This document shows positions 1,411 through 52,556 of a stretch of 60,205 bases of DNA, piece after piece. The first letter of the stretch is position 1; each line of letters begins with the position of its first letter. Source of the DNA: a virus (lineage: Duplodnaviria > Caudoviricetes). The notes beneath the pieces are model-generated. The model did not search any database. It was not told where the DNA came from and worked only from the letters and a program-made list of their open reading frames with translations. Made by a program: the position numbers and the translations under genes. The stretch lies in IMG/VR virus record IMGVR_UViG_3300033183_000125, positions 1 through 60,205 of that record. One strand, given 5' to 3'.

Positions 1411-1606
1411 AATCAATTTCCTTCTTGATAGGGTAGGGTTCTGCCAGAGCGATTGCTCTGACCTTGTTGAAATCACGCACTCGAACATTCGCGTCTTTGA
1501 CACGACGACGAACACGTTTCCAAAAGCTGAGTGGGCGGCCAGGAATAAGACCGAACCACTCAGCAGGGATACGTAGTCCCCTTAGTTTAGCGGGCTGTCT
1601 GGGCAT
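1394..1606 (-). CDS. Possible small basic protein
   Basis: Fills the gap between cobT and the 889-1410 gene and overlaps both. The same stretch also folds into hairpins. Confidence 0.35.
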   Translation of the reverse strand: MPRQPAKLRGLRIPAEWFGLIPGRPLSFWKRVRRRVKDANVRVRDFNKVRAIALAEPYPIKKEIDYDKPF

Positions 1607-3761
1607 CACGGCGTCCTGTGGCGATGAGATCTGAGTTGTCAACGACGAAGCGTTCACCTAGCAACATCTTGCCAAGCTGATCCATGACGTGCTTGCTGAG
1701 ATCATCAAGCCGTTGCACCACAACGTAACGTGGGAAGAACTGCTTGACGCAATCATCACCGATGCCGATACCCACAACGTCAACACCGTTGAGCGTCATC
1801 CATTCAACAACGTCACGAGTATGCTTGTAGCTACTCTCATTACCGTAGTCGTTACGATAGGCTGGCCTACCGTCAGACATGGCAATGAATATCTTGCGTT
1901 GCTCTGGGCGTTGAAGCAGTCGGTCAACAGCATAGACCCACGCATCACCGTCAGCGTTGGATGCGCCTGCGGAGTAGGGCATCTGACCGAGTGCGCCTCT
2001 GGCACGTTGCAGTGGGGTATCGAATGACTTGAACATAGTCATGCGAATGGCACTTTTGCGGTGATACTTACGACCAGTTTCACTACGATACATGACGGTT
2101 GCGCCAGCCGTATTGTGGCCAGTGATTTCTAGCTCAACGCCAGTTCCTTGCAAGGCTTCGGCGATGGCGATAGAGCAGTCAGTAGCAAGGCTTATTTCAC
2201 CGCCGCGCATTGAGCCAGACAAGTCAACACAGATAGAGACAGCGGTATTGATGCTGTCATCCATGACTTTGTGACGGAAGACGAGAGGATCAAACCTGAT
2301 GATACTGGTCAGCTTGTTTGTGTCTAGCCTACCGTGTCGCTTACGTGGTGCGTAACGACTACGTTTCTGTGACACCAATGCTCGCTCAAGTTTGCGACGC
2401 ATCGTGCCTATCTTGTTACCCATCTGCTTGAGACGATCACCATACTCAATGTCGCCACTCTCAAGGTTCTTGGTCTTCGTTACCTTGATGCCATCATTGA
2501 ACTTGGTCTTGTCTTTGGGGGCCACTTGCCAGCAGTCAGCGTCACGAGTGAGGACAAGATACTTACCCCCCTCAACACGTTGGCTGTGTATGTCTGCGAC
2601 TACTTTGTCGAGAGCCTTGACCAACTCACCAGTGATGACACCCTTGCAGTTATCCCGTTCCCACGCCGTTTCGATAGCGTCGCTAGACTGTTCGTAGGTA
2701 GTGGGCTTGTCGTCACCAGAGCGAAGGTCGCCACGGCTTACGTCTTGGTGGCTGGGTTCAGTTCCGCTATCTGTTTCTTGAGTGCGGTTATCTGATTGTC
2801 CCTCGCCAGAACCTTGATCGCCAGTTCCAGTAGGGCTTGTTGGATCTGCATCTGAAGAACCTCCAGAAGTTCCTTTATCTCCCTCTCGTTGAGCATCGCC
2901 ATTGTCTTGGCTATCTGCGGTGCGCCCTGTTCTTCTAGTAGCTTGCTCATTATCTGCGGTAAGGTCGAAGTCGATGTCGTTTCCGTTTCCGCCTCCACGA
3001 CGTTGAGTTTGGTAGTCATCTGCAATCCTCTCTGCAAGTTTGTGTAACTCTCTGCAACCACGATACGCGGCCTCAGTATCAATGTCGCCCATACCACGAA
3101 CGCCAGTCTCAAGGTGCTGAACAGCATCAACGATGGTGTTAACCTTGCGACGAACGTCATCGGACAACAGGTCTAAGCATTTCTGCATGGTGTCGGATGG
3201 ATAACCTAGCCGACGACGACCCTCCCATGTGATGGCAACAGCCCCGATCTGGCCGAAGTCAGACACAGCATCGGCAGGGATGTTACCACTAGCGTAGTTG
3301 TCCAAGAACTGTTGGTTGACCTCGTGACTGGTATGGTCAATCGCTTTGGGCAAGCCGTTGTATAGGTCACGGCCACCCATCTCGATACGAACGTCCTCCA
3401 TAGCGTTGGCTAGTGCAGACGTAAGCTCTCGGCCATCTCTGTTCCAGCGACGACACATCTCTTCAGTCTCACCGTCGAACTCGGTAAGGACATTGTGTAA
3501 CATCTCGTGGTTGGCAAAGCCGCCAGTCACAAGACCCTGACGCTTAGTGATAGTGGCGTTGTCAGGTAGTGCAGGAAGCACTACATGCTGGCCATCAGTG
3601 TAAGCCTCGTCGCCAGCAAAGGTAACGGTAGCTTTAGCATTGCGCGACAACGTAGACACAACAGCTTTGGTTGCATCCATTAGGTCACGACCCGAACAGT
3701 AGGCTGTATCTAACTCGCCACTGTCAGGGATGTATGTGATTTTGCGTTGTGATTTTCTCAT
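1587..3761 (-). CDS. cobT: CobT-like vWA protein with an N-terminal HExxH metallopeptidase-like domain
   Basis: AYTDG..V.LP, NHEMLH...NAMEDVRIE, an acidic disordered linker, GRLD, MIDAS DLSGS and SDGRP. Adjacent to a CobS-like ATPase. Confidence 0.85.
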   Translation of the reverse strand: MRKSQRKITYIPDSGELDTAYCSGRDLMDATKAVVSTLSRNAKATVTFAGDEAYTDGQHVVLPALPDNATITKRQGLVTGGFANHEMLHNVLTEFDGETEEMCRRWNRDGRELTSALANAMEDVRIEMGGRDLYNGLPKAIDHTSHEVNQQFLDNYASGNIPADAVSDFGQIGAVAITWEGRRRLGYPSDTMQKCLDLLSDDVRRKVNTIVDAVQHLETGVRGMGDIDTEAAYRGCRELHKLAERIADDYQTQRRGGGNGNDIDFDLTADNEQATRRTGRTADSQDNGDAQREGDKGTSGGSSDADPTSPTGTGDQGSGEGQSDNRTQETDSGTEPSHQDVSRGDLRSGDDKPTTYEQSSDAIETAWERDNCKGVITGELVKALDKVVADIHSQRVEGGKYLVLTRDADCWQVAPKDKTKFNDGIKVTKTKNLESGDIEYGDRLKQMGNKIGTMRRKLERALVSQKRSRYAPRKRHGRLDTNKLTSIIRFDPLVFRHKVMDDSINTAVSICVDLSGSMRGGEISLATDCSIAIAEALQGTGVELEITGHNTAGATVMYRSETGRKYHRKSAIRMTMFKSFDTPLQRARGALGQMPYSAGASNADGDAWVYAVDRLLQRPEQRKIFIAMSDGRPAYRNDYGNESSYKHTRDVVEWMTLNGVDVVGIGIGDDCVKQFFPRYVVVQRLDDLSKHVMDQLGKMLLGERFVVDNSDLIATGRRDAQTAR

Positions 3762-3772
3762 TGATTACTCCC

Positions 3773-5806
3773 TTATGAAAACACGCGGTCAGCCATTTCG
3801 ATAACAGTGCGAGTGCTATCTGCTGGCGCACGATCAGTGATGACAACCTCAAGGGCTTTCTTGAGTGCTGTCTTGCGGTCAGGCATGAGGTCAGACATGT
3901 GTAGGAAATACATGACCAGACTATCCATGCCGCGAGGCGATATAGTGGTGGACAACTCGCCAGTCTTGAACGCTTGCCGAACCTCGACTGCGAACTGTGA
4001 CATCTCTTCGGCGTCAGACTGCTTGAGCGTCGGATACTTGTTGGTAAGTAGCTTCTGCTCGGTGGCTTTGTCTAAGTAGTCAACCTCAATGAACACACCG
4101 AAGCGGTCAAGCGTAGCGACGTTCATGGGGCGGACACCCTGATACCAGCCATACTCGTCACCCTGACCACGAGAGTTAGCGGTTGCGACGAAGCGGAACA
4201 GGGGATGAGACTGAACCACTCGGCCACCGTCCTCTGTAAGCACGAGACCTTTCTTCTCTAGCGCACGTTGGATGGTGAACAACACGTCAGCTTGGCCAGC
4301 GTCCATCTCGTCGAGTATCAGGAACGATGGCTGTTGCATGGCTCGTGGTAGGATACCCTCGACATACGTCGTGACAGGCACACCGTTCTCGACTGTCAAC
4401 TCTTTCGAGCCAACCATGTCACTGCGTTCGATGTTACTGTCGAGGTTGAGACGGTGAACAGGGAAGCAAATGCGAGCCGCGACTTGCTCGGCTAACGTAG
4501 TCTTGCCAGTGCCAGTGTGACCATGAAGCCAGAGGTTCTGACCGAACAAGTGGCCAGACAGGAACTTGATTAGGTGGTCAGGTCTGAACTCGTAGTTGTC
4601 ATCGACATCAGGACACAGTGGATGACGCACCTCGTCACCGTTAGCGTTGCGCCACAGCAGGGTAGGTATGTCAAAGTTGAGAGCCTTGACCTTGCGTCCG
4701 AACACCTTGCCAGCGTTCTGCTGGACAACCTCGTAGGTAAGGTCATCGTCAACGCCAGCGGTCGGTATGGTAGGGACATTGCTTGCAGACTTAGATAGCC
4801 TGTTAACTTGGTTGGTTAATTCCAAGACTTTGGATACTTGCTCATTGTATTGGTCAACCATCTGGTCGAAGGTCAGGTTGTTGTTCTGTTTGAGCAGTGC
4901 ATCAATGGCTGGCTTGAGCGATGGGTCAATAGACCACGAAGGCTTTGCCTGTTCCTGGGGCTGTTCCTGGTCAGGCTCAGTGTTAGTAGTCATCATCTGC
5001 ATCTGCTTGATGGCCACAGTATCAAAGTTGTCTGGGTTGGTGGCATCGCATAGCAGATGGTCGATGGTTTGCCAGTCATTGCCAAGCGACATCAGTTGCA
5101 CAGATGCAGACACAGCCTCAATGAACCTGTCAGGGTCACTCATCGAAGCCATTTTGGTTGCGTTCATCTGGCTCATTATGTTTTTGACAGCATCGTGGTC
5201 AGGGAATTGTGGTGCGTCGGTAAGTTGCGCCAAGCCCTGATCGACTAGCTCTTGGTTAAGTATTGCGATGCAAGTGTTAGCGTATAGAACTTCACTCACG
5301 ACTTTCTCTCCTGTGTTGGTTGGTGTGGGGTTAACCCTGTCCTTGTAGGTCAAGGGTTCGTTGTGGTCGAACGGGAACGGGGTAAGTTCACTGTCTATTG
5401 CGTTGATGAGGTCAATATCGTTGTTAGATATTCGAGCGTGAAAGCCGTGCGACTTGCCACTGCCTCGTCGTTTGAAATGACATTTGCTCTCGTCTTTGAG
5501 CGCCTCAATACACAAGTCTAACCACTCATCTCGTCTGTCGTGGACAAACTGTCCGCTGTGCTTAGACTTCTTGTAGTCAATGAGTGCGGAATGAATGAGG
5601 GACAGCAAGACACAGCGGTCAACACTGTCAATCCACTTGCGTAACTTAGTGCCAGCGGCGGTTGTCAGTGAGTGTCTTGCGTTCGAGTTCTCGACTAGGC
5701 TGTCCCAGTTATCGGCGACGAACTTTCGTAGTAGGTTGCGAGATGCGTTGCCATCCAGCCGCCTGTAATAGACAATGAAGTCTACGATTTTTGCTTTCGT
5801 AAGCAT
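3773..5806 (-). CDS. cobS: CobS/MoxR-family AAA+ ATPase with a long N-terminal extension
   Basis: Walker A GHTGTGKT, Walker B LILDEMD, ATANSRGQGD, ATLDRF, ISPR. Start ATG 5806 after GAAGGGA. Confidence 0.9.
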   Translation of the reverse strand: MLTKAKIVDFIVYYRRLDGNASRNLLRKFVADNWDSLVENSNARHSLTTAAGTKLRKWIDSVDRCVLLSLIHSALIDYKKSKHSGQFVHDRRDEWLDLCIEALKDESKCHFKRRGSGKSHGFHARISNNDIDLINAIDSELTPFPFDHNEPLTYKDRVNPTPTNTGEKVVSEVLYANTCIAILNQELVDQGLAQLTDAPQFPDHDAVKNIMSQMNATKMASMSDPDRFIEAVSASVQLMSLGNDWQTIDHLLCDATNPDNFDTVAIKQMQMMTTNTEPDQEQPQEQAKPSWSIDPSLKPAIDALLKQNNNLTFDQMVDQYNEQVSKVLELTNQVNRLSKSASNVPTIPTAGVDDDLTYEVVQQNAGKVFGRKVKALNFDIPTLLWRNANGDEVRHPLCPDVDDNYEFRPDHLIKFLSGHLFGQNLWLHGHTGTGKTTLAEQVAARICFPVHRLNLDSNIERSDMVGSKELTVENGVPVTTYVEGILPRAMQQPSFLILDEMDAGQADVLFTIQRALEKKGLVLTEDGGRVVQSHPLFRFVATANSRGQGDEYGWYQGVRPMNVATLDRFGVFIEVDYLDKATEQKLLTNKYPTLKQSDAEEMSQFAVEVRQAFKTGELSTTISPRGMDSLVMYFLHMSDLMPDRKTALKKALEVVITDRAPADSTRTVIEMADRVFS

Positions 5807-5837
5807 ACGGTTTTCCCTTCGTAATGGTTGGTGTGTG

Positions 5838-6047
5838 TTAGCCACTGATAGCCTCATCTATCGTGGTGAGTTGGTTGTTAATGACTATCCAACTGGTCAG
5901 GTTGGGGGCGAGTTTGCCGTTCAATTCGGTTACGAGTGAAGCGGCGAGTTGTTCAACCTCTTCGTAGCCTACGCTGTCACCATTGACATCACAGGCATGA
6001 TGGGGTTGACGATTTCTGTCGATGAGCCAGACGCTATACATACGCAT
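5838..6047 (-). CDS. Hypothetical protein
   Basis: Part of the tightly packed early operon and overlaps the upstream stop. Confidence 0.6.
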   Translation of the reverse strand: MRMYSVWLIDRNRQPHHACDVNGDSVGYEEVEQLAASLVTELNGKLAPNLTSWIVINNQLTTIDEAISG

Positions 6048-6516
6048 CTCTCATATCTTCGACTGCCTTGATAAAATCATCCAACTGGTCGAGGCTGTAG
6101 AATATATGCTGGTCTGGCCTTGTGCCTTCGGCCTCTGTCATTCCCTCAAAGTGCCGTTGTTCGTCGGCGTAATACGATGCTCGTATCTCGTCGAGGTGAG
6201 GCATGACATCAATGAGAGCGTTGTTTATGTGGTCGAGTTGCTCCCGTAGTCCGATGACTGATGCTATCAATTCACCGCCAACTGTATGGGGTTGGCAACT
6301 GAACTCGTTGGTCAGCCTGTATTCGATGTCGTTTAGACTACAGGCCATACCATATAGGGGGCTGTCTTGTTGAACTGCCATCCGTTTCTCCATGATTAGT
6401 GAATACTGCGAGTGATGAACGCTTGGTGGGAATGTCGCAGATACCACCCACCCATTGCGAAAGTAGTCATGCACTTGGGCATAGACTACATATCGGAATG
6501 TTCTTACCCGTTGCAT
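6034..6516 (-). CDS. Hypothetical protein, possibly two fused ORFs
   Basis: ORF track 6034..6552, likely start MQRVRTFRY at 6516. Internal GGAG + ATG near 6381. Confidence 0.6.
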   Translation of the reverse strand: MQRVRTFRYVVYAQVHDYFRNGWVVSATFPPSVHHSQYSLIMEKRMAVQQDSPLYGMACSLNDIEYRLTNEFSCQPHTVGGELIASVIGLREQLDHINNALIDVMPHLDEIRASYYADEQRHFEGMTEAEGTRPDQHIFYSLDQLDDFIKAVEDMRDAYV

Positions 6517-6593
6517 GGACACATAGCCCATGCAAGGAAGATGATGACGCATACCTCAACGGCGTAGCGTTTGATTTGCGTGGTGTCATTCAT
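6504..6593 (-). CDS. 29-aa putative membrane peptide (not in the ORF track)
   Basis: MNDTTQIKRYAVEVCVIIFLAWAMCPCNG. GGAG RBS. Starts just after the upstream stop. Confidence 0.5.
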   Translation of the reverse strand: MNDTTQIKRYAVEVCVIIFLAWAMCPCNG

Positions 6594-6595
6594 TA

Positions 6596-6994
6596 TCAAT
6601 ACTCCGCTTGAGTATTTGGTTTGTTGCCAAACTCTGCCTCTGCTTTGCCGTATATTTCATCCAGGTCTACATAAATGACACGCCCGTCGTGGTTGATTGC
6701 CACAGCAATTCCTTTGACATAGCGCATTTTCTCACGGCCTATCTCGTAGATAACAAAGACCTCGCCATCTGCCAGATGACTTGGCAGACGCTTGTCCTCG
6801 TCTATTGTGCCTAAGTAGTCACCATCGTCAGAGACTAGGCTTGGGATGCCAAAATGGTCGTTGGACAAGAAGCCAATACGCTTCTCGTTATCTTCGATGA
6901 TTTGCACATCGTATTCGGACAAGAACTCTTTGAACTTCTCAGGGTTCTTGGCTTTGATGTAATTGGAACGGCAATCTGCAATGTAATCTGCCAT
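6596..6994 (-). CDS. Hypothetical protein
   Basis: 132 aa, RBS AAGGGAG, TAATG stop/start coupling. Confidence 0.8.
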   Translation of the reverse strand: MADYIADCRSNYIKAKNPEKFKEFLSEYDVQIIEDNEKRIGFLSNDHFGIPSLVSDDGDYLGTIDEDKRLPSHLADGEVFVIYEIGREKMRYVKGIAVAINHDGRVIYVDLDEIYGKAEAEFGNKPNTQAEY

Positions 6995-7164
6995 TAGTCG
7001 TCTCCCTTCTCTATGTTATTGGTGACGAGGATTTCTTCTGCTTCGTCTATGCACTCGGCAAGCAAAGCATCTCTATCAGGCCAAGCGTCACCGCCTTTGG
7101 CCTCATACAATGCGCCGCCAATCTCATTGATGATGGCGACGAATGTTGGTGTCGGTATCTTCAT
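6994..7164 (-). CDS. Hypothetical protein
   Basis: Start MKIPT at 7164 after GGAG. ATGA overlap with the upstream gene. Confidence 0.65.
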   Translation of the reverse strand: MKIPTPTFVAIINEIGGALYEAKGGDAWPDRDALLAECIDEAEEILVTNNIEKGDD

Positions 7165-7367
7165 GTCAGCACTCCGTCTGATGGCAATGGGGTTTCTCCT
7201 TCCCAACCAAACTCACTTTCTTCGACTACATGAAAGTCCCAACTGGTGAGGTCGCCACTCTCAACGCACTGCTTCATGTGGTCGAGTATGGCATCGTAGA
7301 CATTCTCACCGACCTCGAAGTCATCAGTAAGTGAGACAGTCACAGGCTTGTAATGCTTAGTCGTCAT
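7161..7367 (-). CDS. Hypothetical acidic protein
   Basis: Coupled ORF with a GAGGA/GAGA RBS. Confidence 0.65.
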   Translation of the reverse strand: MTTKHYKPVTVSLTDDFEVGENVYDAILDHMKQCVESGDLTSWDFHVVEESEFGWEGETPLPSDGVLT

Positions 7368-7569
7368 CGTTTTCTTTCCTCTCTACAAAGATATGAAGCG
7401 ACCACATTGGCGGCTCGTATGGAACATCGCCTATAACTGAACGCCACTCCCACTGGAAGTAGTGACCAAGATGCTTTTGCAGACTGGCCTCAATGTCATT
7501 CAAAGCCAGTGTGCTGTTGTTGATAAGCTGGTTTTGAAGATAAGGTTTGCAGGGTTTGTATTGATTCAT
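7357..7569 (-). CDS. Hypothetical protein
   Basis: Start MNQYK at 7569 after AAGGGAG. ATGA overlap. Confidence 0.6.
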   Translation of the reverse strand: MNQYKPCKPYLQNQLINNSTLALNDIEASLQKHLGHYFQWEWRSVIGDVPYEPPMWSLHIFVERKENDDD

Positions 7570-7811
7570 TTCCATCTCCCTTCGACTGGTGTGTATGGTA
7601 TGAACAGGCACTCGTTGGTGTAGTAAGTGCCATCAGCGTTGTAAGTGGTCGTGCCACAGCCAACCATGAACTCAAAGGCGACTAAGAGTATGATTGCGTA
7701 GGTAATGATGGCGATTGAGATGTAGCCAAGAGCCTTTGCAACACGAACTCTTAGTGATGGTCGTTCGTAGTTGAAAGGGATGTCGATTTTTGTGCGGTTG
7801 ATGTGTGTCAT
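7566..7811 (-). CDS. Single-pass membrane protein
   Basis: Hydrophobic ALGYISIAIITYAIILLVAFEFMVGCG followed by a short Cys-containing tail. Confidence 0.7.
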   Translation of the reverse strand: MTHINRTKIDIPFNYERPSLRVRVAKALGYISIAIITYAIILLVAFEFMVGCGTTTYNADGTYYTNECLFIPYTPVEGRWK

Positions 7812-7812
7812 G

Positions 7813-7911
7813 TTATGCTCCCCAACCGACCATGAAGATGTCGGTTATGATTGCGGTGATGCCCAAGATGGCATCGCCAATTAGCAAGAGTTGGTCTACT
7901 GGTATTTCCAT
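7813..7911 (-). CDS. 32-aa hydrophobic peptide (not in the ORF track)
   Basis: MEIPVDQLLLIGDAILGITAIITDIFMVGWGA with a perfect AGGAGG RBS. Confidence 0.6.
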   Translation of the reverse strand: MEIPVDQLLLIGDAILGITAIITDIFMVGWGA

Positions 7912-7925
7912 CTGAGCCTCCTGTT

Positions 7926-7956
7926 AGATGTGTAGCAGATGTGTGACAGATGTCAA
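7926..7956 (-). promoter_or_regulatory. Candidate sigma70 promoter overlapped by three 11-bp-spaced ACATCT boxes
   Basis: Minus strand TTGACA-tctgtcacacatctgc-TACACA. AGATGT at 7926, 7937 and 7948. Confidence 0.5.
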
Positions 7957-8207
7957 GCAGATTGCTTGAGTTGTGTATCGTAGAAGCGACGACGATAGTC
8001 ATCAACCTCTATCGGTGCGAGGATGTTACGAGACGAAATGCTTTCGCAGATAGCCTCAAACTCACAGGTCATTTGGTTGAACAAGAACTGCTTGCTCTCG
8101 CCATCCATTAACTGTGAACAGGTGACTGCCCTCTCAATCCAGTAGGCGAGAGAGGCACGAGATACTTCGACAAGCGTGTTGGCCATCGGCTTGCTGATGT
8201 GACGCAT
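7953..8207 (-). CDS. Hypothetical protein
   Basis: AAGGAGG RBS and TAATG coupling. Confidence 0.7.
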   Translation of the reverse strand: MRHISKPMANTLVEVSRASLAYWIERAVTCSQLMDGESKQFLFNQMTCEFEAICESISSRNILAPIEVDDYRRRFYDTQLKQSA

Positions 8208-8395
8208 TACACTGCCTCCTTGATTGATTTCCAGTTAACAGTGACGCTGGCATCGTTGTGGGCGTGCCACTCGCCAATGACACGACGAGTAATCCTCTCG
8301 ACTACTACGCCACTGGCGTTGCCGTGAACTGCCTCGTCTTTATCGACATCGGCAAGGAATGAACTGAATGTTTTGTAATGTGTGAACTGTTGCAT
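8207..8395 (-). CDS. Hypothetical protein
   Basis: Start MQQFT at 8395 after GGAGG. Confidence 0.65.
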   Translation of the reverse strand: MQQFTHYKTFSSFLADVDKDEAVHGNASGVVVERITRRVIGEWHAHNDASVTVNWKSIKEAV

Positions 8396-8519
8396 AACAG
8401 CCTCCGTTGGTTGGTGTGTGTAGGAAAGAGTTATTGCGAAAGGGTCATAAGCGTGGGTTACGAAATCTCCCCGACCAATGCGGTTCAAGAAAATCGCTAA
8501 TGTCCAATGACTTGTTATG

Positions 8520-8571
8520 CCCTGTTTCGCAGTAACTCATCAGGTATGACTACTAGCGTCATACGACAGGG
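8520..8571 (-). ncRNA. Type III hammerhead ribozyme with a loop I-loop II pseudoknot
   Basis: Minus strand CCCUG-UC^-GUAUGAC[gcUAGUA]GUCAUAC-CUGAUGA-G[uUACUG]C-GAAA-CAGGG. Full catalytic core, GUC cleavage triplet, three stems and complementary loops. Confidence 0.88.
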
Positions 8572-8599
8572 AAGGGGACACCGAAGCGTCCCCTTGTGT

Positions 8600-8893
8600 T
8601 CAGTCCCAGAAGTGACCGAGGTTTTGTGCGACGAACAGCATGGCTGACTGCGCTCTGAGGTGGAAGTCAACCGTCGGCTTGTCGTCATGGTCGAGCCAAT
8701 GGTCATGGTATGCCAGCAGTGCGCGGCCATGCTCTGCCAAGCGTGCCGTCCAACTAATGTGGTCGTAGTCGGGATGGTAAGAGTTGGTGTGTTCGGACAA
8801 GAAAATCATCCGTTCACCGAGCCACTTGCAAAGCGTGATGTCGAGTGACACGCAATCCTTACCCATTGGCGTTTCCCAAACTGATGTGTTCAT
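8600..8893 (-). CDS. Hypothetical early protein
   Basis: Start MNTSV at 8893 after AAGGGAG. Ends AQSAMLFVAQNLGHFWD. Confidence 0.75.
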   Translation of the reverse strand: MNTSVWETPMGKDCVSLDITLCKWLGERMIFLSEHTNSYHPDYDHISWTARLAEHGRALLAYHDHWLDHDDKPTVDFHLRAQSAMLFVAQNLGHFWD

Positions 8894-8944
8894 GTTGATG
8901 CTCCCTTCGTTGGTTGTTTGTGGAAAATGAACTAAAAAATGCAC

Positions 8945-8977
8945 AAAAAAAAACGAGGACAGCCGAAGCCATCCTCG
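8945..8977 (-). terminator. Intrinsic terminator
   Basis: Minus strand CGAGGAUGGC-UUCG-GCUGUCCUCG followed by U9. Confidence 0.85.
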
Positions 8978-8993
8978 CTAGTGGTTGGTGATG

Positions 8994-9365
8994 TTAGGCT
9001 ACCATAGCCTGGCCGATTGCAACGATAGCCTCGTAGCAGTCACGGTTGGCTTTGGCTTTCTTGGTGTAGTTAGCCTTGAGAGCGTTGGGGCATTTGCCAG
9101 ATGCTCTTGCATAGGCATCACAAACGGCTTTGGAAGTGTATTTCAGCCGCTTGTATTCGTTGTCCCTTGCACGACGAAGCACAAAGGTTGCGATGTTCCG
9201 AAGGTCTTGGATGTCAACCTCGAACTTGCCGTTGAAGAACGCTTTGATGTCGTCGGCAGAAGTGCGGTTGAGGTCGTAGGACTTACGGCCAACCTTGACA
9301 CCGACGGCAACAGGGTTGGTGTAGTTCTTGGAAGTGAAGGTCTTGGTTACGGTAATTTTCGCCAT
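8994..9365 (-). CDS. Basic hypothetical protein, first gene of the early arm
   Basis: Start MAKIT at 9365 after AAAGGAG. Has its own terminator. Confidence 0.8.
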   Translation of the reverse strand: MAKITVTKTFTSKNYTNPVAVGVKVGRKSYDLNRTSADDIKAFFNGKFEVDIQDLRNIATFVLRRARDNEYKRLKYTSKAVCDAYARASGKCPNALKANYTKKAKANRDCYEAIVAIGQAMVA

Positions 9366-9756
9366 GAGGTTATCTCCTTTGAGGCAGGGTTGATTTGTTC
9401 CGCCGAGCCACTGCGGCAACGGCGACACCATTTACTCCCCCCTACCCCCTTTGGGGGCTTCGACGACGAGGCCAAGTATCTGAAATGATTACCATTACCC
9501 TCTATACCCCTGATTAAATGCTGATATGTCAGAGCATTTCCTAAACATCGTAGGATAGAACACCAGATATAGCCCTCAGAAGGCTACAGAACTATAACAA
9601 AAACAACGACTTAGCTAGACCAGTTGTCACTTATCTGACAGATTGTTGGGGTGGGGGGCGGCAAGGCCGCCCCGCCGACGGCTTCCTGGTTTGCCAGTCA
9701 CCACCATTCCGAAATTTCGTACCTAATTTTGAAAACACTGTCTTATTTTTTAGACA

Positions 9757-9789
9757 GGGACGATTTGCTTACGCATGTCGCGTTATCGT
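9757..9789 (+). promoter_or_regulatory. Putative late promoter (terminase operon)
   Basis: GGGACGA-N20-TATCGT. The motif recurs before other late genes. Confidence 0.6.
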
Positions 9790-9816
9790 TACATCTCAAC
9801 AGTTCATGGGGAAGTA

Positions 9817-10242
9817 ATGAGCGTAGTTAAGAAAAACCCTCACCCAACAAAGGGAATGGGTCTTCCAGCCGTAACGCCGCAACAAGTTGACAGAGTTCGG
9901 CGTAGCGTTCTCGACGTGGTTCGTAAAAACATACCAGCAGTGCGTGAGGTCTTGGAGGGCAACCGTAAATGGGACAACCAACAAGTTAGGTTATTTGGCA
10001 TGATGCTTAACAAAGTCATGCCCGACCTACACCACAGTTTCAATCAGCACACAGTAGAAAACAAAAGCGTCGATGAACTGACAGTCGATGAGCTTATGGA
10101 AATTGCACGTCAGGGCGAGATAATCGAAGGAGAAGTAGAGGATGGCGATAACGAGAGCGGAGGCGGCGAAGAAACTCCTACAGATACAGGAAGTGAAGAC
10201 GGGTTTCAGGGGGTTCGTGAAAGCGTTAGCGCCGAAGTTTGA
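9817..10242 (+). CDS. terS: Terminase small subunit (putative)
   Basis: Immediately upstream of terL. LNKVMPDL motif and LTVDELMEI. Start moved to ATG 9817. Confidence 0.7.
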   Translation: MSVVKKNPHPTKGMGLPAVTPQQVDRVRRSVLDVVRKNIPAVREVLEGNRKWDNQQVRLFGMMLNKVMPDLHHSFNQHTVENKSVDELTVDELMEIARQGEIIEGEVEDGDNESGGGEETPTDTGSEDGFQGVRESVSAEV

Positions 10243-11764
10243 GTTAGCACCATTCCAAGAGGAGCTTGTAGATGCGCTTGACCAGCTTGAGAGAGGGACG
10301 CTCGGCCCTCGACGACTACTTATTACTATGCCACCTCGACATGGTAAGTCGTGGCTTGCGTCTACACTTTTCCCAGTCTACTACCTCGCACGGAAACCAA
10401 ACCGAAATGTCCTTGCCACCTCATACAACCAAGATCTCGCCAAGACATTTGGTCGGCAGACACGCGACCATGCCCGTGAGCCTATCATCGGCCAAGCGTT
10501 TTCTGATTTTGTATTGTCTGAGGAGAGCCGTGCTGTTGACGACTGGCGGACTACGATGGGCGGAACATATTATGCAACTGGCATCGGCGGCTCTACGACG
10601 GGTCGTGCGGCGACGCTCCTCCTAGTAGACGACCCGATCAAAGCCCGCGAAGAAGCCGACAGCGCCACACAGCGCAACAAAACATGGTCATACTATGTCT
10701 CCGCACTTACCACTCGTAAGCAACCAGAGCCAGACGGCACACCTGCCATAGAGATAGTTATCCTAACTCGCTGGCATCCTGACGACGTGGCTGGCCGTCT
10801 CATGGACACGGACGATTGGCGAGAGGGTGCATGGCATCATATTAACTTTCCAGCCATCCGCAAGGTAGATACACATGTCAAGAAATCTGTGGCAGAACTC
10901 CCAGAAGATGACCCGCGCTTCATTCCGCAGGGCCAACTCAGTAAGGTCGCCCCATCAAAAAGACACTACTATGATGAAAGCGAGGAAGCTCTCTGGCCTG
11001 AGAGGTTCCCACTTGAAGAACTCAAAAAGCGAGAAAGGCTAGACCCCCGCGAGTTCGCATCCCTTTACCAGCAGTCTCCGTTTATACAGGGCGGTAACAT
11101 TATCAAGGATAGCTGGTGGCAATGGGACGACGACAAGCCAGACTGCACCCAACTAATTATCGCGGCTGACACCGCGTTCAAGAAAACGGAGCAGGCCGAC
11201 TACTCCGTACTCCTAGTCATGGGGCTTGACCGAAACGGAGACATGCACGTTCTTGATCTTATCAGGAACAAGTACGACTTCCCCGAACTGAAGCGTGTCT
11301 GCGTCCAGGTCAATGCCCGATGGCGCGGTCACGGTCTGCGTGGCCTATACATAGAAGATAAGGCCAGCGGCCAATCTCTGATCCAAGAACTGCGTAACCA
11401 AACGGGCGTAGCCGTAATACCGTACAAGGTCAGTACCGACAAAGTGTCGCGCCTGAACGCTGTAACACCGCTTATAGAAGGTGGCAGAGTATTCCTCCCG
11501 CGATCAGCCCATTGGCTCGACGACTTCATGCTTGAGTGCCAAGCGTTCCCTAACGGCACAAATGATGACCAAGTGGACGCATTAAGCATGGGCCTTGATG
11601 TATTATCACGAATGGGTGGTGCTGTTAGCGACATGTTCACTAGCTCATTAGACATCGGTTCGTCGCTAAATAATCAGTTCCAACCGCCGAAAGACGGCGA
11701 CCAATGGTGGCAACAAGCCGCCAAAAAAGAGGATAAGTGGATGAAGTCTTGGGGTGAACTCTAA
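10142..11764 (+). CDS. terL: Terminase large subunit
   Basis: MPPRHGKS Walker A, LLLVDDPIK Walker B, LTRWHPDD, LYQQSP, nuclease motifs DTAF..DYS and FPNGTNDDQVDA. Confidence 0.97.
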   Translation: MAITRAEAAKKLLQIQEVKTGFRGFVKALAPKFELAPFQEELVDALDQLERGTLGPRRLLITMPPRHGKSWLASTLFPVYYLARKPNRNVLATSYNQDLAKTFGRQTRDHAREPIIGQAFSDFVLSEESRAVDDWRTTMGGTYYATGIGGSTTGRAATLLLVDDPIKAREEADSATQRNKTWSYYVSALTTRKQPEPDGTPAIEIVILTRWHPDDVAGRLMDTDDWREGAWHHINFPAIRKVDTHVKKSVAELPEDDPRFIPQGQLSKVAPSKRHYYDESEEALWPERFPLEELKKRERLDPREFASLYQQSPFIQGGNIIKDSWWQWDDDKPDCTQLIIAADTAFKKTEQADYSVLLVMGLDRNGDMHVLDLIRNKYDFPELKRVCVQVNARWRGHGLRGLYIEDKASGQSLIQELRNQTGVAVIPYKVSTDKVSRLNAVTPLIEGGRVFLPRSAHWLDDFMLECQAFPNGTNDDQVDALSMGLDVLSRMGGAVSDMFTSSLDIGSSLNNQFQPPKDGDQWWQQAAKKEDKWMKSWGEL

Positions 11765-13657
11765 ATGAGATACAAAGACGTAAAGCTCGACAAGAACGAC
11801 TTAGTAGTCGATCTGTCAAATCTGGCACAGCCACTGATGAACTACGAAGACATCTCTGACATGCTCTCTGACGAGCAGGAGATCAAACTTGTAGACTATG
11901 TGCGTGCCTTAACCAAAATGTCTTACGAGCGCATCAGCCGTCGCTACGACCATTGGCGCGACGCAGACCGCGCTCACGACGTATGGGTTCCAGCAGACAG
12001 CACCAAGTTCAGGGAGAAGGCGGTAGTTGCAGACACCCGCGCAATCGCCGACACAGTTCTGACCTACCTTATGGCCGCCCTAGCTGGCCGTAACCCTATG
12101 TTCCAGCTTGAAGGTCTTAACAGAAGGTCTCGTAAAGCCTCACTTATCCTGGAGCGCTTACTACACCAGCACATGCGCCGCACAGCAGGCGAAGCCCGCA
12201 TCGCGCAAATGCTAATGGACAGCATACGCTACGGATTTGCGCCAACTAAAGTCATCTGGGATCCACAGTCAAATACCAACCAGATCATCAACTTCGACCC
12301 ACGTAAATGCTTCCCAGACCCACGAGTTCAGTGGGGCGACTGGGATCGTATGCAGTACGTCGTATTTACAGACCACATCTCAACCAACGCCCTCTACGGT
12401 TCAGGCCACTATCCTAAACTACACAAATACCCTGGCCTCCGCAGTAAGCACACCACCAACTTTAAGTCTGGATGGGACGCACACCGCTGGGTGAAAGAAG
12501 AGGGTAAGGGTCTCAACATTAACCCAGAAGATCCACGCGGCGACGAGAACGGCTACCACTTTACCCTAGACGACACACGCATCGTAGACGAAGCGTGGGT
12601 TCGCTTGAACGGATATGAAGTCGGACTGCCCAACATCGAACAGCTTTGGGTTCTTATAACCGTGCTAGACGAAGACGCTATCATCCGTATGCAACTAAAC
12701 CCATACGGAAGACAGTTCCCTGTAGCCTTTGGCGGTCTCTACAACGACCAGCATAAGACCTACAGCCAGTCCTTATACGACCTTCTTTTACCAATGCACG
12801 AGATTAGCACATGGCTCTTGCGCTCCCGTATCGACAACGTACAGGCCGCTCTAAACAATCTTATCTTCGTAGATCCGACATCCGTAAGCGTACCAGACCT
12901 TATCGACAGAAACCCGTGGGGAGTTGTCCGAACGCTACCAGGTACAAAGCCAGGCGACGGTATATTCATAGCAGAAGTACCAGACGTAACTCGCGGCCAC
13001 TGGAACGACATCCAAGCGATGTCAGACCTCAAACAGAGGGTTAGTGCCGCTTCAGACGCCCAGCAGGGCGTTCCAACAGCCGACGGCATACGAACCGCCA
13101 CAGAAATCCAAAGGCTCACTCAGCTAGGATCACAGCGCCTCGGCGTTCTTGCCAGAGTTCTATCGGCACAGTCAGTTCGGCCACTTGTCCGAATGATGAC
13201 TGCAAACCTACAGGACGCTCTCGAATACGAAGGCTCTCTTCGTATGATGGACGGTCAGGCTCCTGGCGAACTTAGCCGCATGGTCAACGACGGGTATTTA
13301 GACTTCGATGTCTCAATGCTCCAGGGGGACATCGACTACTTAGTAGTAGACGGCACTCTGCCAGTTGAGCCGACCAGAAATGCCGAAACTTGGATGAACA
13401 TGCTCCAAGCCGTTGGCCAGTCTGGGCTTCAGATGGAATACAAGACAGGACGCATCATTGAAGAAGCCATCCGTGCGATGGGCGTATCTGACGTAGACCA
13501 ATTCAAAATCAGCAAAGAGGAGGCCGCACAAGGCCCAACACCATCACAACAGATGGCACTGATGGAGAAAATGCGTGGCGCTTCTGTAATGCCAGAAGAA
13601 CAAATGCAACGTGAAATCGAAAAAGGAAATCTCAGACCAGCAAGGGAGGCCGCATAA
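11765..13657 (+). CDS. Portal protein (podovirus type)
   Basis: Follows terL. 630 aa with R-I-D-N and RTATEI motifs typical of P22/SU10-like portals. Confidence 0.88.
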   Translation: MRYKDVKLDKNDLVVDLSNLAQPLMNYEDISDMLSDEQEIKLVDYVRALTKMSYERISRRYDHWRDADRAHDVWVPADSTKFREKAVVADTRAIADTVLTYLMAALAGRNPMFQLEGLNRRSRKASLILERLLHQHMRRTAGEARIAQMLMDSIRYGFAPTKVIWDPQSNTNQIINFDPRKCFPDPRVQWGDWDRMQYVVFTDHISTNALYGSGHYPKLHKYPGLRSKHTTNFKSGWDAHRWVKEEGKGLNINPEDPRGDENGYHFTLDDTRIVDEAWVRLNGYEVGLPNIEQLWVLITVLDEDAIIRMQLNPYGRQFPVAFGGLYNDQHKTYSQSLYDLLLPMHEISTWLLRSRIDNVQAALNNLIFVDPTSVSVPDLIDRNPWGVVRTLPGTKPGDGIFIAEVPDVTRGHWNDIQAMSDLKQRVSAASDAQQGVPTADGIRTATEIQRLTQLGSQRLGVLARVLSAQSVRPLVRMMTANLQDALEYEGSLRMMDGQAPGELSRMVNDGYLDFDVSMLQGDIDYLVVDGTLPVEPTRNAETWMNMLQAVGQSGLQMEYKTGRIIEEAIRAMGVSDVDQFKISKEEAAQGPTPSQQMALMEKMRGASVMPEEQMQREIEKGNLRPAREAA

Positions 13658-34447: not shown

Positions 34448-37400
34448 GTGCCATACGAACATAAAGGCAAAGGTCTTAATAAGTACACTGGAAACACAGG
34501 CCGCACAGAAGGCTATACTAGCCAAGACTACGCATCAAACCTCAACGAAGATACAGCAAAAAACCTTTTGGGCGACAACAGGTTCTTAAAAGACCTGTAC
34601 GACTACTATGGCCAAAGAGACGGCAAGTCTTTCTCGACCTCAGACGAAGCAATCGAATACTACCTAAACGACAGACGCTGGCGTAACAACAACACCATCT
34701 CTATAGGCCGAGATGTGTATGACGCTTACAGCGCGAACGACGCACAGGCTATGAGACTAGCCCGCATCCAACAGGTATATGATGCGCTTCCATTCGGTGT
34801 TGATGGTGGCTTAGAAGCGGTTGCAGAGACTGGCGCGGCAATGCTCTCTGACCCCCTGAACCTTATCGGCTTCGGTGCTGGTGGGCAGGCCGCTCGCCTT
34901 GCCGCTGGTACAGCCGCAAAGCAGGCTGGTAAACACATAACTAAAGGCGCTATAACGAGGCAAGCGCTAGGTAGCGCGGCCAAAGCAGGCTTCGTCGGCG
35001 AAGCCGTCGCGGGCGGTATCACAGAAGGTATCGCTGACATCGGTATCCAAAACAGAAACGTAGCACTCGGATTGCAAGACGACGTATCTCTCTTACGGGC
35101 AGGCGGCGCGGCTCTTCAAGGTGCGGCGTTTAGTGGAGCGATTGGTGTTCCTATGGGTCTTGCTGGTGCGGTAGCACCTACTGGACTACTTGGCAAAGCC
35201 AGAGATGGCAAGATTATGGGTTCTGTCTTTGACGACAAGAACGCAAGAAAGGCTGGAAAACAAGGCGTAGCCCAACTCAGCCGAGAAGGCTTGGAGCAGT
35301 TAAGCGAAAAAGTCGGCACAAACATGGACTTGAACTCCATCCGTCGTGGCATGGCTGACGCGGCTGTCAACCGCACAGGAAGAGTAACTCCAGATGGTGG
35401 ACTACAGTTAAAGCCTAGCGTTCGCGGCGACTTGTCAGAAACAGAAGCAACTCCTGATTGGGGTCAGGCTGGCGAAGCCGAAGTAATGTCTGGCATTGAG
35501 GACAAGGTTAAGCAAGAGCTTGAAGAACATAGAGCGGCGCGGGAAGAGGCCAGGCAGGAAGGTAACACTCAAGAAGCCGATAGGATCGAAGGCGAAGATA
35601 TTGGCGCGGCACAGCGTAAAATCGACCGTATCAACTGGATCAACCAGTGGCCTAGAACAAGAGAAAAACTGCAAGCGCAGGCGAATGAGCTTACGGCTAA
35701 CCTACAAGCAGAAGGTAAGACTGGATCTACCCCAGAACTAGACGACTTAAACAAGCGCATCAGAAACGGTGATAACGCTTACGGAGACTTCGTAGCACAA
35801 AGCCGCACTGAGCTACAAAACGGCGGCTCTATGGCCGCAGACAGAATTGATAGTATTCTCGAAAGCCCGAACGAATTACTGGACGAGGCAGTACAGGGCG
35901 AAGGCTTTACAGTCGCGCCAGTCGCAACAACAGGCACTGGGCAACGTGTATCACTGGATCAAGACACACGTCCTGGTCAGCAAGAACAGTTCCGTCCACA
36001 GCCTCAAGAGCAGGACGCACAAACAGCAACGCCAGAACCTGAACAAGAAGCACCAACTGGCGGCGCACAGGCAGAGCCAGAAGCGCCAACTACTGACGAG
36101 CGTCTTGCACAAATTAACTCACGCTTAGACGGACGCAAGAAGGGTAGCATAGCTTACGAGCGTAAACGCCTTGAGCGTGAGATGGCTCAAATGCCAGAAA
36201 CTCTTGAAGACGGGACGCAGAACCCAGAGCGTCTTACCCTTCAAAATCGTATGGACGCTATAGAGCAGGAGGCTATTTCTCTAAAAGAAGAGCAACAGTC
36301 TCTGGCCACTCGCCAAGCTGAAGAAGCAAAGCAGGCCAACGACGACATCCTAAACGAAAACCCAGAGCAACCCGCACAAGAAACCGTACTGGCTGAAGAT
36401 ACAGCGCAACCAGAAGCGGCGCAGGCTCAGACTACACAGGCTCCAGAACCAGTAATAGATGTTAATACACAAATCACAGACTTCATCGACAACGAGTTCG
36501 AGCCAACACTGGCTAATATTCGTTTTGAATTTATTAGCCTCGGTATGGAGCGCCCAGCCGTAGACGCTATCATTGCGTCACTTCCAAGAGGCAAAAGTAA
36601 AGCCGCCACAGAAGCACGCAGAGAGGTATTCAGAGAGACAGTAAACATCGTTCGTGGTCAGCGCGAATGGCAGGGCATACTGAACCGCTCTCAAGGTCTG
36701 ACTGGTGCAGGCGACGAATTGTTTGATGAGACAATAGCTGACGCCCTGATCGAAAGCACAGTAGGTGAAGCTCTCAGCGAGCCTACCAAAAACGCTCACC
36801 GTGAATGGCGCAAGCGTGGCGTTGCTCGCTATGCAATGGACATCGAAAACGAGTTCATGGGCATGGCTACAATCGACGAGATGTTGGAGGTTGTACGCAA
36901 CCGACACGGTGAAGGTGGGTTCTATGACATGGTTGCCGAGTTCTGGGCTAACGCACAGAAAGGTATCCTGCCATCACCAGATGACGGTATGCCGCAGTTC
37001 GTCCGCCAACAGATCGCTACCTTGCCGAAAGAAATGCAAGTTGAGTGGACTGCATTTAGAGAAGCCGCCGTCCGCAACCTTATGAAGACTGGCAAGCTGT
37101 CAGAGCAAAGCGCGAAAAGACTTATCGCCACTCAGATGGATGCGATGCTTGACCGCTTCTTGCAGATGCAGGCGTATCAAGCAACCGACCCGCTTGGCAA
37201 TGTATACAGCACACGGATGCTGGCAACACGCGGTATGCGGGCTATAGACATTGACGAGAAAGCCATTAAAGAGGGACACGGAGATCACATTGGCCGTGTA
37301 CAGCATAACCTCCGCAACGTAACTATGGGCAATGGGCGTCCAGGTTCTGGTCGCAACATAAGCGACAAGATGGTTGGCCGTATCCAGTCCTTCCTGCGCG

Positions 37401-40400
37401 AAGTGCCAGAGGGGTTCAGTGGCCGCACTTTCACAACAATACGCACCGTAAAAGATGGCAAGACATTCTTATACGACGCATCTGAAAGCGCACGCATCCA
37501 GCTTGACGTATCTAAGCTAGAAAACAACACCTCAAAGGCTCGTGCTTTTGATGAGGAGTTAAGAGATCGTAGCATCGAAGCGGCTCAACGTGCCAAAGAC
37601 GAAGGCAGAACCAACGTACTAGACCCACGAGAGCTTGAGGAAGTCACAAAAGAAATTCGTCTTGCGGAAGGCGCAGTTGCTAGAGCAACCAAAGCATACG
37701 ACCAGCAGATTGACGACGGAATAAATATCGACACACCTGGTTACATTGAAGCTGTCCAGAGAATGGAGGACAACCCAGACGGCCCACAAGACTTGCTGTC
37801 TGACCTCGAAGACCAAGTGCTTTCCAAGTACAGCGACAAGTTGGACGAAGCTAATGACAGGCTAAAGGCGGCTCTAAAGCGTGCAAAAGCCCTGACTGGC
37901 TCGAAAGGGACAGACGCAGAAACTATCAAGCTGGACTTGAAAGAGAAGTATGAGCCTCTCGTATACACAGACAAGGCCACAGTAGTAGCTAACAAAATCG
38001 AAGCTGACCGTTCGTCTCATGTACGCCGTTACGCAGAAGTGCAGGCCCGCCTGCGTGGTATCAATTCCGATCTGCGTGCCGCAGAGCGTCAAGGTAATGC
38101 TGAGAAAGCTGTCGCCCTGAAGAAGGAGCGTGCCAAGCTAAACAAGCGTGCTAAAGAAGTGATGAACTTGATGACGCCTGCTGACCGCAAGCGTCTTGAA
38201 GCAGACAACGCAACTGCCGCTATTCAAGCTCTGGGCAAATTGAAGCGCGAACTTTATAAGGCTCGTAATGCAGACGCTCAAAGCAAGGCAGACATCCCAC
38301 AAGATGAGCTTATCAGAGAGACGGAAGAAATATTCAACGTCAATCTCTCTGAAGAAGAGTTGTCTCGTGCAGAGTATTACGCCAACCAGGAAGAGTTGGC
38401 CAGCCTAGCGTACCAAGAAATGCAGGGAGAACTGGCTCACTTGCATGAACACAGTCAGGGTATGCCTAAAGAAGAGGTTGCCGCTTCTGCACGTCAAATT
38501 GTTGACAACGCCAAAGACAAGATTCAGGCATCCAAGCCTGACACACGCCCTAAAGGCGAGCCAGAAGCTCACATTGTCCAGATCGGCAAGCGTGCTTACA
38601 ACTTAGCGAAAGACGTTCAGTACCAAAAAATATCTGGTGACACTACTAAGTTCTTCGTCGCTGGGCGGGAAATGGGTTCTGTCAAAGAGTTCACTTCTGC
38701 CGACGGCGAAAAGACTTACAGGATCACTCGTCGTGACGGCGACAAGATTGTGTCAGACATGGCGTCCAACAGAGTGGAACTTTACAAGAAGCTGGCACAG
38801 CAGTTGAAGAAAGAACTAGATGGAGTTCTTTCTTCAAACAATGTCCCAGAAGAACGTGGTTTTGCTTCGTCGCCTACAGAAATCCCAGACTACCACAACA
38901 CACAGCGCTACGCTTCAGTCGAAGATGCGCCTCTCCAGGCGCAGTCATCCGACCCGATCTCGGTCGCCGACACCACTAAGCCGCAAGACCGTGGTGTAAG
39001 TCAAGATATGATGCCCGAAGGCAAGCTAGTGGCAATTCAAATCATTGACCCGAAGCACCCAGATTATGGCAAAAACAAAGGCACTCGCGTCATCAATCAA
39101 ACAAGCAAAAAAGGTGCGCCTCCTCAGACATCATCGTCTCAAATTGCTGGTGGGTTGAAACCAGGCCAGTTCGTAGTCGGGTCTGTCGATAGTGTAAATT
39201 CAAACGGTGGCCCAGTTAAGTCTGGCACAGTAGCCGCCGTCAAAACATTCCGCCCACTAAACCCTGACGACGAGTTCGTAGGGTTCAGCGGCCAGCGCAT
39301 GACTGGTCGTCAGGCTGGCGAAACTGAGCCGTTGATCGCCCCAGAAAATATCGACTTACCTAGCTCTCCTCGCGCTCGTGAGAACAGGGCGACCCATGTA
39401 AATGAGTTGGACAACATAGAACTCAACATGGCTAACGTATCACCAGCCCTAACACGGAATGGGATGCCTGCAACTGTTCGCACTGCTGGAGACTTACAGC
39501 GGTTCCTTGCTGACATGGAAGACGTGCAGTGGGATCGCTTCGAGAACATTGACCAGTTCGATACTTTCACAGAAGCGCTTGCGGCTGGGTATGAAACCCT
39601 AGCTATGTATGCGCCAAATGGTGTGAAGCTACCTAATCAGAAGCGCTCGCAATCATACAAGCAACTTAACGAGATGCTTGCTGGTAAAGACCAGAGAGAA
39701 ATATCTGAAATACTGAGCATCTTCAACATGATAGCTGGCTCTGAAAACAGACAGGGCGCAATGCTTGAAAGCGCCATGCCAGTATTTGATAAGGCCGAGC
39801 GGTACGGGTTCAAGCAACCTGGCCGCCACATGGCAAAAGACAAACAGTCAAACAGCATACTGATCGGCACATCTAACAAGCAGACAGACGCCATGAACTT
39901 TGCCCATGAGATGGCTCATTGGGCTTACCAGAACATGATGACGCCAGCAGAGCGTCTGGAGTTCTGGCAAATTGCTAGAGGCTACGTCGGCACAGAAGGT
40001 GCTGACATTGGCGCACTGAAGAAGCGTTTGCCAGGCATCAGCAAAGGTGAAATCCGTAGCCCATCAGAGTTCTTCGCTAACCAGTTTGCTATGTATGTAG
40101 CCAACCGCCGTCAAATGGCGCAGGCAAGCCTGCTGACACGCCTGTTCCAAGACATCGGAAGAAAGGCTGAGAGCCTTGTTCGTCGCCTCATGGGTATGGA
40201 CGATACCCTAGACGAGAAATTGGTTCAGATGTTTGACCGCATTATGCCAGATCCGTTCGATGCCGCTGACAGCGTGTCTTCTGGCCGAAGAATGGCCAAC
40301 CAGTTTGACGAGATATTAGCCAAAGCCAACGGTAAAGGCTCTTCGTCTGCAAGGATGGCGGCACAACAGCTACATGACTTGCGCTCTATCCAGCTAGAAC

Positions 40401-49379: not shown

Positions 49380-49581
49380 TGATGCGCCTCGCCTGCCTTA
49401 TCAGTTCATCAAGTGATCTGTTGAGTTCTTCCTCTCTTTTCTTCCGTGCCTGACCCTGTTGCATAAACAGTACATCACTCGCCTCGGCACAGAGTTTCTT
49501 AAATCTCTGCGTAATCCACATATCGCCACAGTTAACTATCTCTGGCGGTATTGGGCCTTCCCATCCACTACGCTTTGGCAT
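49360..49581 (-). CDS. Hypothetical protein
   Basis: Coupled ORF with a GAGG RBS. Confidence 0.55.
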   Translation of the reverse strand: MPKRSGWEGPIPPEIVNCGDMWITQRFKKLCAEASDVLFMQQGQARKKREEELNRSLDELIRQARRINEQEEN

Positions 49582-52334: not shown

Positions 52335-52556
52335 ATGTACACGTTCAATGTCCGTCGGTTAGTCGAGGACTGCGGGGGTGTTACCGAAGTAGCAAAAGCT
52401 ACGGGAAAGAGTAGGACGCAACCCTATAGATGGGTCAAGACCAACAGTATCACCACCGATCTACTAGCCAGAATAGTTTATGCAAACCCAACCATCAACT
52501 TACACAGATACTTAGAAGAGAACTCACATGAACGAAGAGATGAAGAAGTGGCGTGA
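52335..52556 (+). CDS. Cro-like HTH regulator
   Basis: LVEDCGGVTEVAKATGKSRTQPYRW. AAGGAG RBS. First gene of the replication operon. Confidence 0.8.
   Translation: MYTFNVRRLVEDCGGVTEVAKATGKSRTQPYRWVKTNSITTDLLARIVYANPTINLHRYLEENSHERRDEEVA

Follow-up and report, generated by a model that had tools for sequence, protein, structure and literature searches.

A short intergenic stretch on the minus strand of this phage genome (8520–8571) reads like a hammerhead ribozyme, which raises the question of whether the phage encodes a genuine self-cleaving RNA at this position and, if so, what cutting an operon transcript there would do for the genes on either side. We refer to the whole stretch of DNA analysed, a complete virus record of 60,205 bp with direct terminal repeats, as the window. 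Our reading, to which we assign a probability of roughly 0.8 on the strength of sequence comparison, is that this RNA is a true self-cleaving hammerhead of type III, one of a phage-borne subclass in which stem II has only one or two pairs and docking is predicted to occur through a pseudoknot, and that it would cut the operon transcript; the cleavage itself and its consequences for the mRNA are what we infer. Within this reading, covariation gives good support to a pseudoknotted hammerhead of type III, and the processing of an operon transcript is plausible.

The large terminase (10142–11764) and portal (11765–13657) genes both run rightward, while a leftward block of small ORFs begins near 9365 and runs on through MoxR-like AAA and CobT/VWA genes. 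In minus-strand order this block comprises gene A (8994–9365, 123 aa, the first of the leftward operon), an intrinsic terminator, gene B (8600–8893, 97 aa, no Pfam or PHROG match), a hairpin, the hammerhead, a 124-nt spacer and gene C (8207–8395, 62 aa), which has its own GGAGG ribosome-binding site. The hammerhead is thus intergenic and in the sense of the flanking genes, as the initial annotation stated, with the upstream ORF stopping at 8600, 4 nt before the hairpin, and the next ORF starting at 8395. The small-gene block may continue leftward across the terminal repeat towards the integrase gene (58606–59616, minus strand). Because the record encodes this integrase as well as a Sak4-like annealing protein (50921–51718, minus strand), a Cas4-like exonuclease (49568–50356, minus strand) and a primase/helicase (52528–54534, plus strand), the phage is probably temperate.

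This gene content bears on two parts of the initial annotation, which had placed the ribozyme in an 'early' transcript and likened it to the RNase III sites of T7. No phage RNA polymerase gene was identified among the ORFs scanned, and a 3896-aa ORF (34448–46138, plus strand) has no Pfam-A or PHROG match; on these grounds a T7-like or N4-like reading of the genome was rejected, and the early timing is an assumption. Nor does the gene complement support it: integrase, Sak4-like, Cas4-like and primase genes are present, and an intrinsic terminator lies upstream in the same operon. Our scan of the minus strand from 5800 to 10200 found no sigma-70-like promoter, a type that the host need not use. 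Five metatranscriptome runs contained 5–9% of the sampled words and four of these were placed on the window, all as assembled contigs; their eight short pieces fall on 7800–7844, 7941–8196 and 8888–9500 and leave 8199–8882 uncovered, so that they are mute on transcription or cleavage at the ribozyme.

Read letter for letter on the minus strand from 8571 to 8520, the element contains everything that the initial annotation had seen in it, namely a complete type III core, a GUC cleavage-site triplet, a 7-bp stem I and a minimal stem II. Stem III has 6 bp, including A15.1–U16.1, and pairs CCCUGU (8571–8566) with ACAGGG (8525–8520). It is followed by C17 (C8565), and the core register predicts the scissile bond 3' of this residue and 5' of G8564 (8564/8565). 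Stem I then pairs GUAUGAC (8564–8558) with GUCAUAC (8550–8544) across loop I, GCUAGUA (8557–8551). The core strand C3–A9, CUGAUGA (8537–8543), leads into stem II (8529–8536), which consists of G8536–C8529 and an optional U8535·G8530 pair closing on loop II, UUACUG (8535–8530), and the core is completed by G12 A13 A14 (GAA, 8528–8526). Every position of the hammerhead consensus is found (C3 U4 G5 A6 N7 G8 A9; G12 A13 A14; A15.1–U16.1 as A8525–U8566; H17 as C8565), and the three-helix register around the core is correct. Loop I UAGUA (8555–8551) can pair antiparallel with loop II UACUG (8534–8530) through four Watson–Crick pairs and one U·G, giving the candidate pseudoknot. The nested minimum free energy fold of the 52 nt (ViennaRNA, −15.2 kcal/mol) is an alternative that extends the loop–loop helix, and the hammerhead fold comes to −14.5 kcal/mol with the pseudoknot left unscored; fold energies neither help nor hurt the hammerhead reading.

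Motif statistics set the element apart from the rest of the genome. A search for the core pattern CTGATGAG-N4-8-CGAAAC finds a single instance in the 60,205 bases and none in any of 100 dinucleotide shuffles. A search with Rfam models, which the initial annotation had proposed as a check, succeeded in part: under permissive thresholds RF00008 (Hammerhead_3, clan CL00010) aligned from end to end, with all 54 model positions aligned and the core positions matching (E = 0.0014 locally, 1e-4 for the record), but its 25.4 bits are below the gathering score of 48.5, and for this reason a scan of the window at default gathering thresholds reported no hammerhead. The RF00008 model expects a longer stem II than the window has. 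RF03152 (RAGATH-1-hammerhead) gave no match at E <= 10 in the record. At gathering thresholds, Rfam likewise reported a hammerhead in none of 20 related family loci scanned.

The region from 8000 to 9000 had no DNA-level match among 50,697 deposited phage records, so we reached relatives through the terminase and through motif scans. The terminase search gave 25 viral contigs at 68–99% identity in TerL, of which 16 extend 1.8 kb or more upstream of terL. Six of these 16 keep a ribozyme with a canonical core (L002, L003, L004, L006, L010, L023), with stem I changes relative to the window from U–A to U·G in L002, L004 and L023 and from A–U to G–C in L006 and L010, and with a 1-nt deletion in loop II of L004. 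Two others, L007 (7393–7443, minus strand) and L008 (8773–8823, minus strand), carry a variant copy right after gene A, in which the core reads UUUGAAGA (C3 to U plus an extra U). These two copies retain the stems, the GUA/UAC loop pairing, the upstream hairpin and an AGGAG–ATG junction, and show a compensatory C–G to U–A change in the outermost stem III pair; they may be either decaying hammerheads or a natural core variant. Homologues of gene B are found in L002–L006, L010 and L023, and also in L014 (36% identity). L010 has two hairpin–hammerheads that bracket its gene B homologue (L010:3438–3498 and L010:3015–3074, minus strand); the upstream one, a second copy between genes A and B (3438–3498), scores 63 bits, has a 1-nt insertion in its core, CUGAAUGA, and is followed just past stem III by a ribosome-binding site.

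In three further relatives (72% TerL identity) the hammerhead is instead of type II, again with a canonical core (RF02276, 32.8 bits against a gathering score of 37; L012:7151–7214, L011:2221–2284 and L014:1597–1660, all minus strand), and lies in the same small-gene region immediately before a gene B homologue. Hammerhead topology thus varies among related phages within one region. These elements share with the window the phage group, the small-gene region, the strand sense and a canonical core, but their topology is permuted, with stem II open and a GC-rich hairpin as stem III, and they lie upstream rather than downstream of the gene B homologue. No hammerhead was detected at the remaining five of the 16 loci (L016, L019, L020, L024, L025), and the element is therefore dispensable for this phage group.

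A wider family emerged from a pattern scan in which the core and four stem III pairs were fixed and stem I and both loops were left free. Its matches comprised 25 stretches from viral, 72 from metagenome and 7 from genome contigs, representing 57 distinct sequences. Twenty of the 57 have the shape of the window (7-bp stem I, loop I ending in GUA, loop II of 5–7 nt); another 20 have a second minimal shape with a 6-bp stem I, a UNNNAGU loop and a 2-bp stem II; and in the other 17 stem I is absent or different, these being mostly chance matches. The second shape (e.g. L033:1804–1849 and L040:95–140 on the minus strand, L066:717–762 on the plus strand) has a 7-nt loop and a 4-nt loop on its 2-bp stem II, with no obvious Watson–Crick pseudoknot; some of its contigs are labelled gut metagenomes, and several show an upstream hairpin and a nearby ribosome-binding site. 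One metagenome contig has two hammerhead-model matches on opposite strands about 220 nt apart (L067:1276–1342, plus strand, and 1555–1621, minus strand), as does L118, and another contig with a family hammerhead also carries a Mu-gpT-DE RNA (L080:187–241, minus strand; RF03012, 57.8 bits, over threshold).

We aligned the window-shape group with 6-nt flanks, which gave 27 distinct rows from viral and metagenomic contigs, and added L008 to make 28 (alignment A2). The rows are interrelated, and the invariance of the core, the inner four stem III pairs and the loop I GUA is by construction, since the first two were fixed by the pattern and the last was selected. Stem I was free to vary: six of its seven pairs have changed on both sides, 99% of its cells are paired, and about ten different helices occur among the 28 sequences. 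The outermost stem III pair is C–G, U–A or U·G, and G10.1–C11.1, the G–C pair of stem II, is present in all 28. Over the whole alignment 93.7% of cells are paired and eight pairs have changed on both sides, a number reached in none of 500 column shuffles; controls in which the pairing was slid gave 30–42% paired. A covariance model built from A2 (R1) gives just one copy in the window, which scores 75.7 bits against 10.9 bits for the next-best match. The window sequence is part of R1, so this match shows uniqueness rather than independent support; a single match in the 60-kb record also means that the window has no tandem arrangement.

Complementarity between the two loops, seen in the window by the initial annotation, extends to the family. 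With the short loops re-registered by hand, pair 1 (A–U) is formed in 22 of the 28 rows, pairs 2 (U–A) and 3 (G–C) in all 28, pair 4 in 26 and pair 5 in 15. Pairs 1 and 5 are weak. The UAC of loop II and pair 4 stand outside the selection criteria, and it is these that carry the argument for a pseudoknot: pair 4 switches among G–C (15 rows), C–G (7), A–U (3) and U·G (1), with a C/U mismatch in only two (L006, L010). The covariation in relatives that had been named as a check is thus present both in six of the seven stem I pairs and in pseudoknot pair 4.

These observations bear on two readings that would deny the window an active ribozyme. One is that a hammerhead consensus has arisen by chance in an ordinary intergenic hairpin region, or that the signal is an inverted repeat at the DNA level; the core is short and its Rfam score falls under the gathering score, but the absence of the core pattern from the shuffles, the covariation that beats 500 of 500 shuffles and all slid controls, and the pseudoknot counts effectively refute it. 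G·U pairs, moreover, are tolerated on the minus strand only, which points to RNA structure of that strand rather than DNA structure, and family members are scattered over many unrelated contigs, each of them in gene sense with an ORF downstream. The other reading, that the element is the relic of a hammerhead, inactive or in decay, or serves as structural RNA only and has ceased to cleave, we regard as improbable. It draws on the altered cores of L007, L008 and the second L010 copy, on the five related loci that lack a hammerhead and again on the low Rfam score. Against this, the core of the window copy is fully canonical, as it is in all 27 sequences other than L008 (though there the core was fixed by the pattern), and compensatory changes keep stem I and the pseudoknot in relatives found through the terminase (L006 and L010 compared with the window). 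A genuine self-cleaving type III hammerhead remains our preferred reading.

The element does not stand alone. As the initial annotation noted, it directly follows a hairpin with a cUUCGg tetraloop (8572–8595, minus strand; AAGGGGACGC-UUCG-GUGUCCCCUU), a 10-bp stem formed in both MFE and centroid folds that touches stem III with zero spacer. A companion 5' hairpin precedes all 28 family members, ending no more than 2 nt from stem III in 19 of them, and the 40 nt upstream of the 28 ribozymes fold at −8.0 to −20.5 kcal/mol (mean −13.6), against −2.7 on average for an equal length on the 3' side. In the window the stem is followed by UU and then CCCUGUC; with no U-tract it is not an intrinsic terminator, and it is absent from the terminator scan. 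We propose instead that the hairpin serves as a 3' cap for the upstream cleavage product, as a folding insulator, or both. A true intrinsic terminator does occur between genes A and B (8945–8979, minus strand; 12-bp stem, UUCG loop, U7 tail) and was listed by the same scan at 8979–8952; the gene A/gene B junction carries a terminator of this kind in the window and in L006 and a hairpin–hammerhead in L007, L008 and L010. This exchange fits a role for the hairpin–hammerhead in forming 3' ends. Since the terminator sits 380 nt upstream of the ribozyme, transcription of the latter may depend on read-through or on a promoter not found here.

Downstream of the ribozyme the window departs from most of its family. 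In 22 of the 28 members an ORF, 40 or more codons long unless truncated at the contig end, begins 7–11 nt after ...ACAGG, and in these an AGGAG or GGGAG shares bases with the 3' strand of stem III; the six that depart from this are five members of the window's own clade and L028. The genes that follow come from several families unrelated to one another. The window and its four closest variants have, after the ribozyme, a spacer with no start codon nearby (8396–8519 in the window, 124 nt; about 25 nt in L004, where some 100 nt are cleanly missing). This non-coding spacer is kept in L002, L003, L006 and L010, and its segment from 8420 to 8519 (about 100 nt) is conserved at the DNA level in these four even where the next gene differs. 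Its fold across four sequences is a weak 68-nt consensus hairpin with one covarying pair. A possible spacer ORF, a 20-codon TTG frame from 8507, was rejected because a 1-nt indel in L002, L003, L006 and L010 breaks the frame.

The ribosome-binding-site overlap invites a different account of what an active ribozyme is for, namely that it has been selected for the downstream message only, giving it a structured 5'-OH leader and, in most members, freeing the ribosome-binding site held in stem III, with protection of the upstream 3' end incidental. Besides the 22 members with this architecture, it can call on the hammerhead of the haloviruses HF1 and HF2, which stands 13 nt upstream of an early helicase gene in a polycistronic transcript, with a mapped 5' end no more than 3 nt from the cleavage site (PMC3088659). 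As described there, that element resembles those of the 22 relatives in lying a few nucleotides before a start codon, but it belongs to an archaeal virus and has a salt-adapted variant core, and in the window the next start codon is 124 nt away. The account also fits poorly with the spacer of the window and its four closest variants and with gene C having its own GGAGG site, and the feature conserved in 28 of 28 members is the upstream hairpin. We therefore consider selection for the downstream message alone unlikely, if less so than a relic, and continue to favour a self-cleaving hammerhead that would act on the operon transcript as a whole.

A more specific version of this preferred reading can be put forward tentatively. 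The hairpin–hammerhead might be a composite, protein-free element for cistron boundaries that is interchangeable with intrinsic terminators and would cap the upstream 3' end without stopping the polymerase; in most members the 5' strand of stem III (5 bp) might also come away on cleavage, unmasking an ACAGGAG ribosome-binding site and making a natural cleavage-activated translation start. The window copy could then be a derived one, in which a 100-nt insertion has uncoupled the ribozyme from the next start codon. The literature searched, largely open-access main texts, gave no description of a natural phage hammerhead coupled to a Shine–Dalgarno or ribosome-binding site, and the architecture of hairpin, ribozyme and ribosome-binding site, together with the exchange with a terminator, may be new.

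How does the element compare with hammerheads already described? Hammerheads with a short stem II and a loop–loop pseudoknot are indeed known in bacteria and phages, as had been stated for this locus: in the passages compared, Perreault et al. (2011; PMC3088659) report pseudoknots in all three hammerhead types and in about 40% of representatives, with a stem II that commonly has two pairs and once has a single pair, and show that mutants of the pseudoknot lost activity and that compensatory changes restored it. In the same passages hammerheads lie between genes of phages (PaP3, Bcep176) and beside prophage genes; those from prophages cut native polycistronic RNAs of roughly 2 kb both in vitro and in E. 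coli, and the authors propose that long phage transcripts are processed into gene-length mRNAs (PMC3088659). The window shares with these the canonical core, a pseudoknot for the loop–loop contact, a stem II of 1–2 bp and an intergenic position in a phage operon. It differs in that its stems I and II differ by 5–6 bp, while the legend to Figure S4 of that study gives a 2-bp difference as common in type III pseudoknots; and the arrangement reported there, with at least two ribozymes bracketing a gene or short gene block (Perreault et al., 2011), is not seen in the window, where there is one copy per 60-kb record. The abutting 5' hairpin and the overlap of stem III with a ribosome-binding site in relatives are likewise absent from the passages compared, and the main text of PMC3088659 contains no mention of Shine–Dalgarno, ribosome binding or terminator. 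Knowledge of the ribozyme itself is unchanged by the present locus, its kind having been known in phages since 2011.

Two further systems offer analogies of working rather than of kinship, and neither includes the window as a member. In the T7 early transcript RNase III cuts between cistrons, so that the upstream message finishes in a hairpin, and the ends produced are 3'-OH and 5'-phosphate. The working predicted for the window is similar, but the element lacks the long duplex needed for RNase III, and its predicted cut is RNA-catalysed and would leave 2',3'-cyclic phosphate and 5'-OH ends. Synthetic insulators of the RiboJ type place a hammerhead and an auxiliary hairpin ahead of a ribosome-binding site and so standardise the 5' end of an mRNA. 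The element of the window differs from these in being natural and in having its hairpin 5' of the ribozyme, where it would stay with the upstream product.

Taken in order, the events that we envisage would run as follows. The ribozyme would be transcribed within the leftward operon, downstream of gene B, and the hairpin, emerging and forming first, would shield it from the upstream coding sequence and could stack on stem III. Behind this insulating hairpin the ribozyme would fold co-transcriptionally, with stems I and II docked in parallel by a pseudoknot of 4–5 bp joining loop II to the 3' half of loop I, and would then cut itself after C8565. The upstream RNA, carrying gene B, would end in the cUUCGg hairpin and a 7-nt tail with a 2',3'-cyclic phosphate, and the downstream RNA would begin with a 5'-OH and the stem I hairpin, so that both sides of the operon might gain separate stabilities and translation efficiencies without a host nuclease. 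A 5'-OH escapes 5'-monophosphate-dependent attack by RNase E in proteobacteria and attracts RNase J1 in Bacillus, as in the case of glmS; what this means for the downstream message would thus vary with the host.

According to a 2019 review, the purpose of bacterial and phage hammerheads is still undefined (PMC6765202). The element described here belongs to a subclass that is missed by Rfam thresholds (0 of 20 related loci reported), and its natural variants provide a concrete system for asking whether phage hammerheads serve as formers of 3' ends, as translational switches, or as both.
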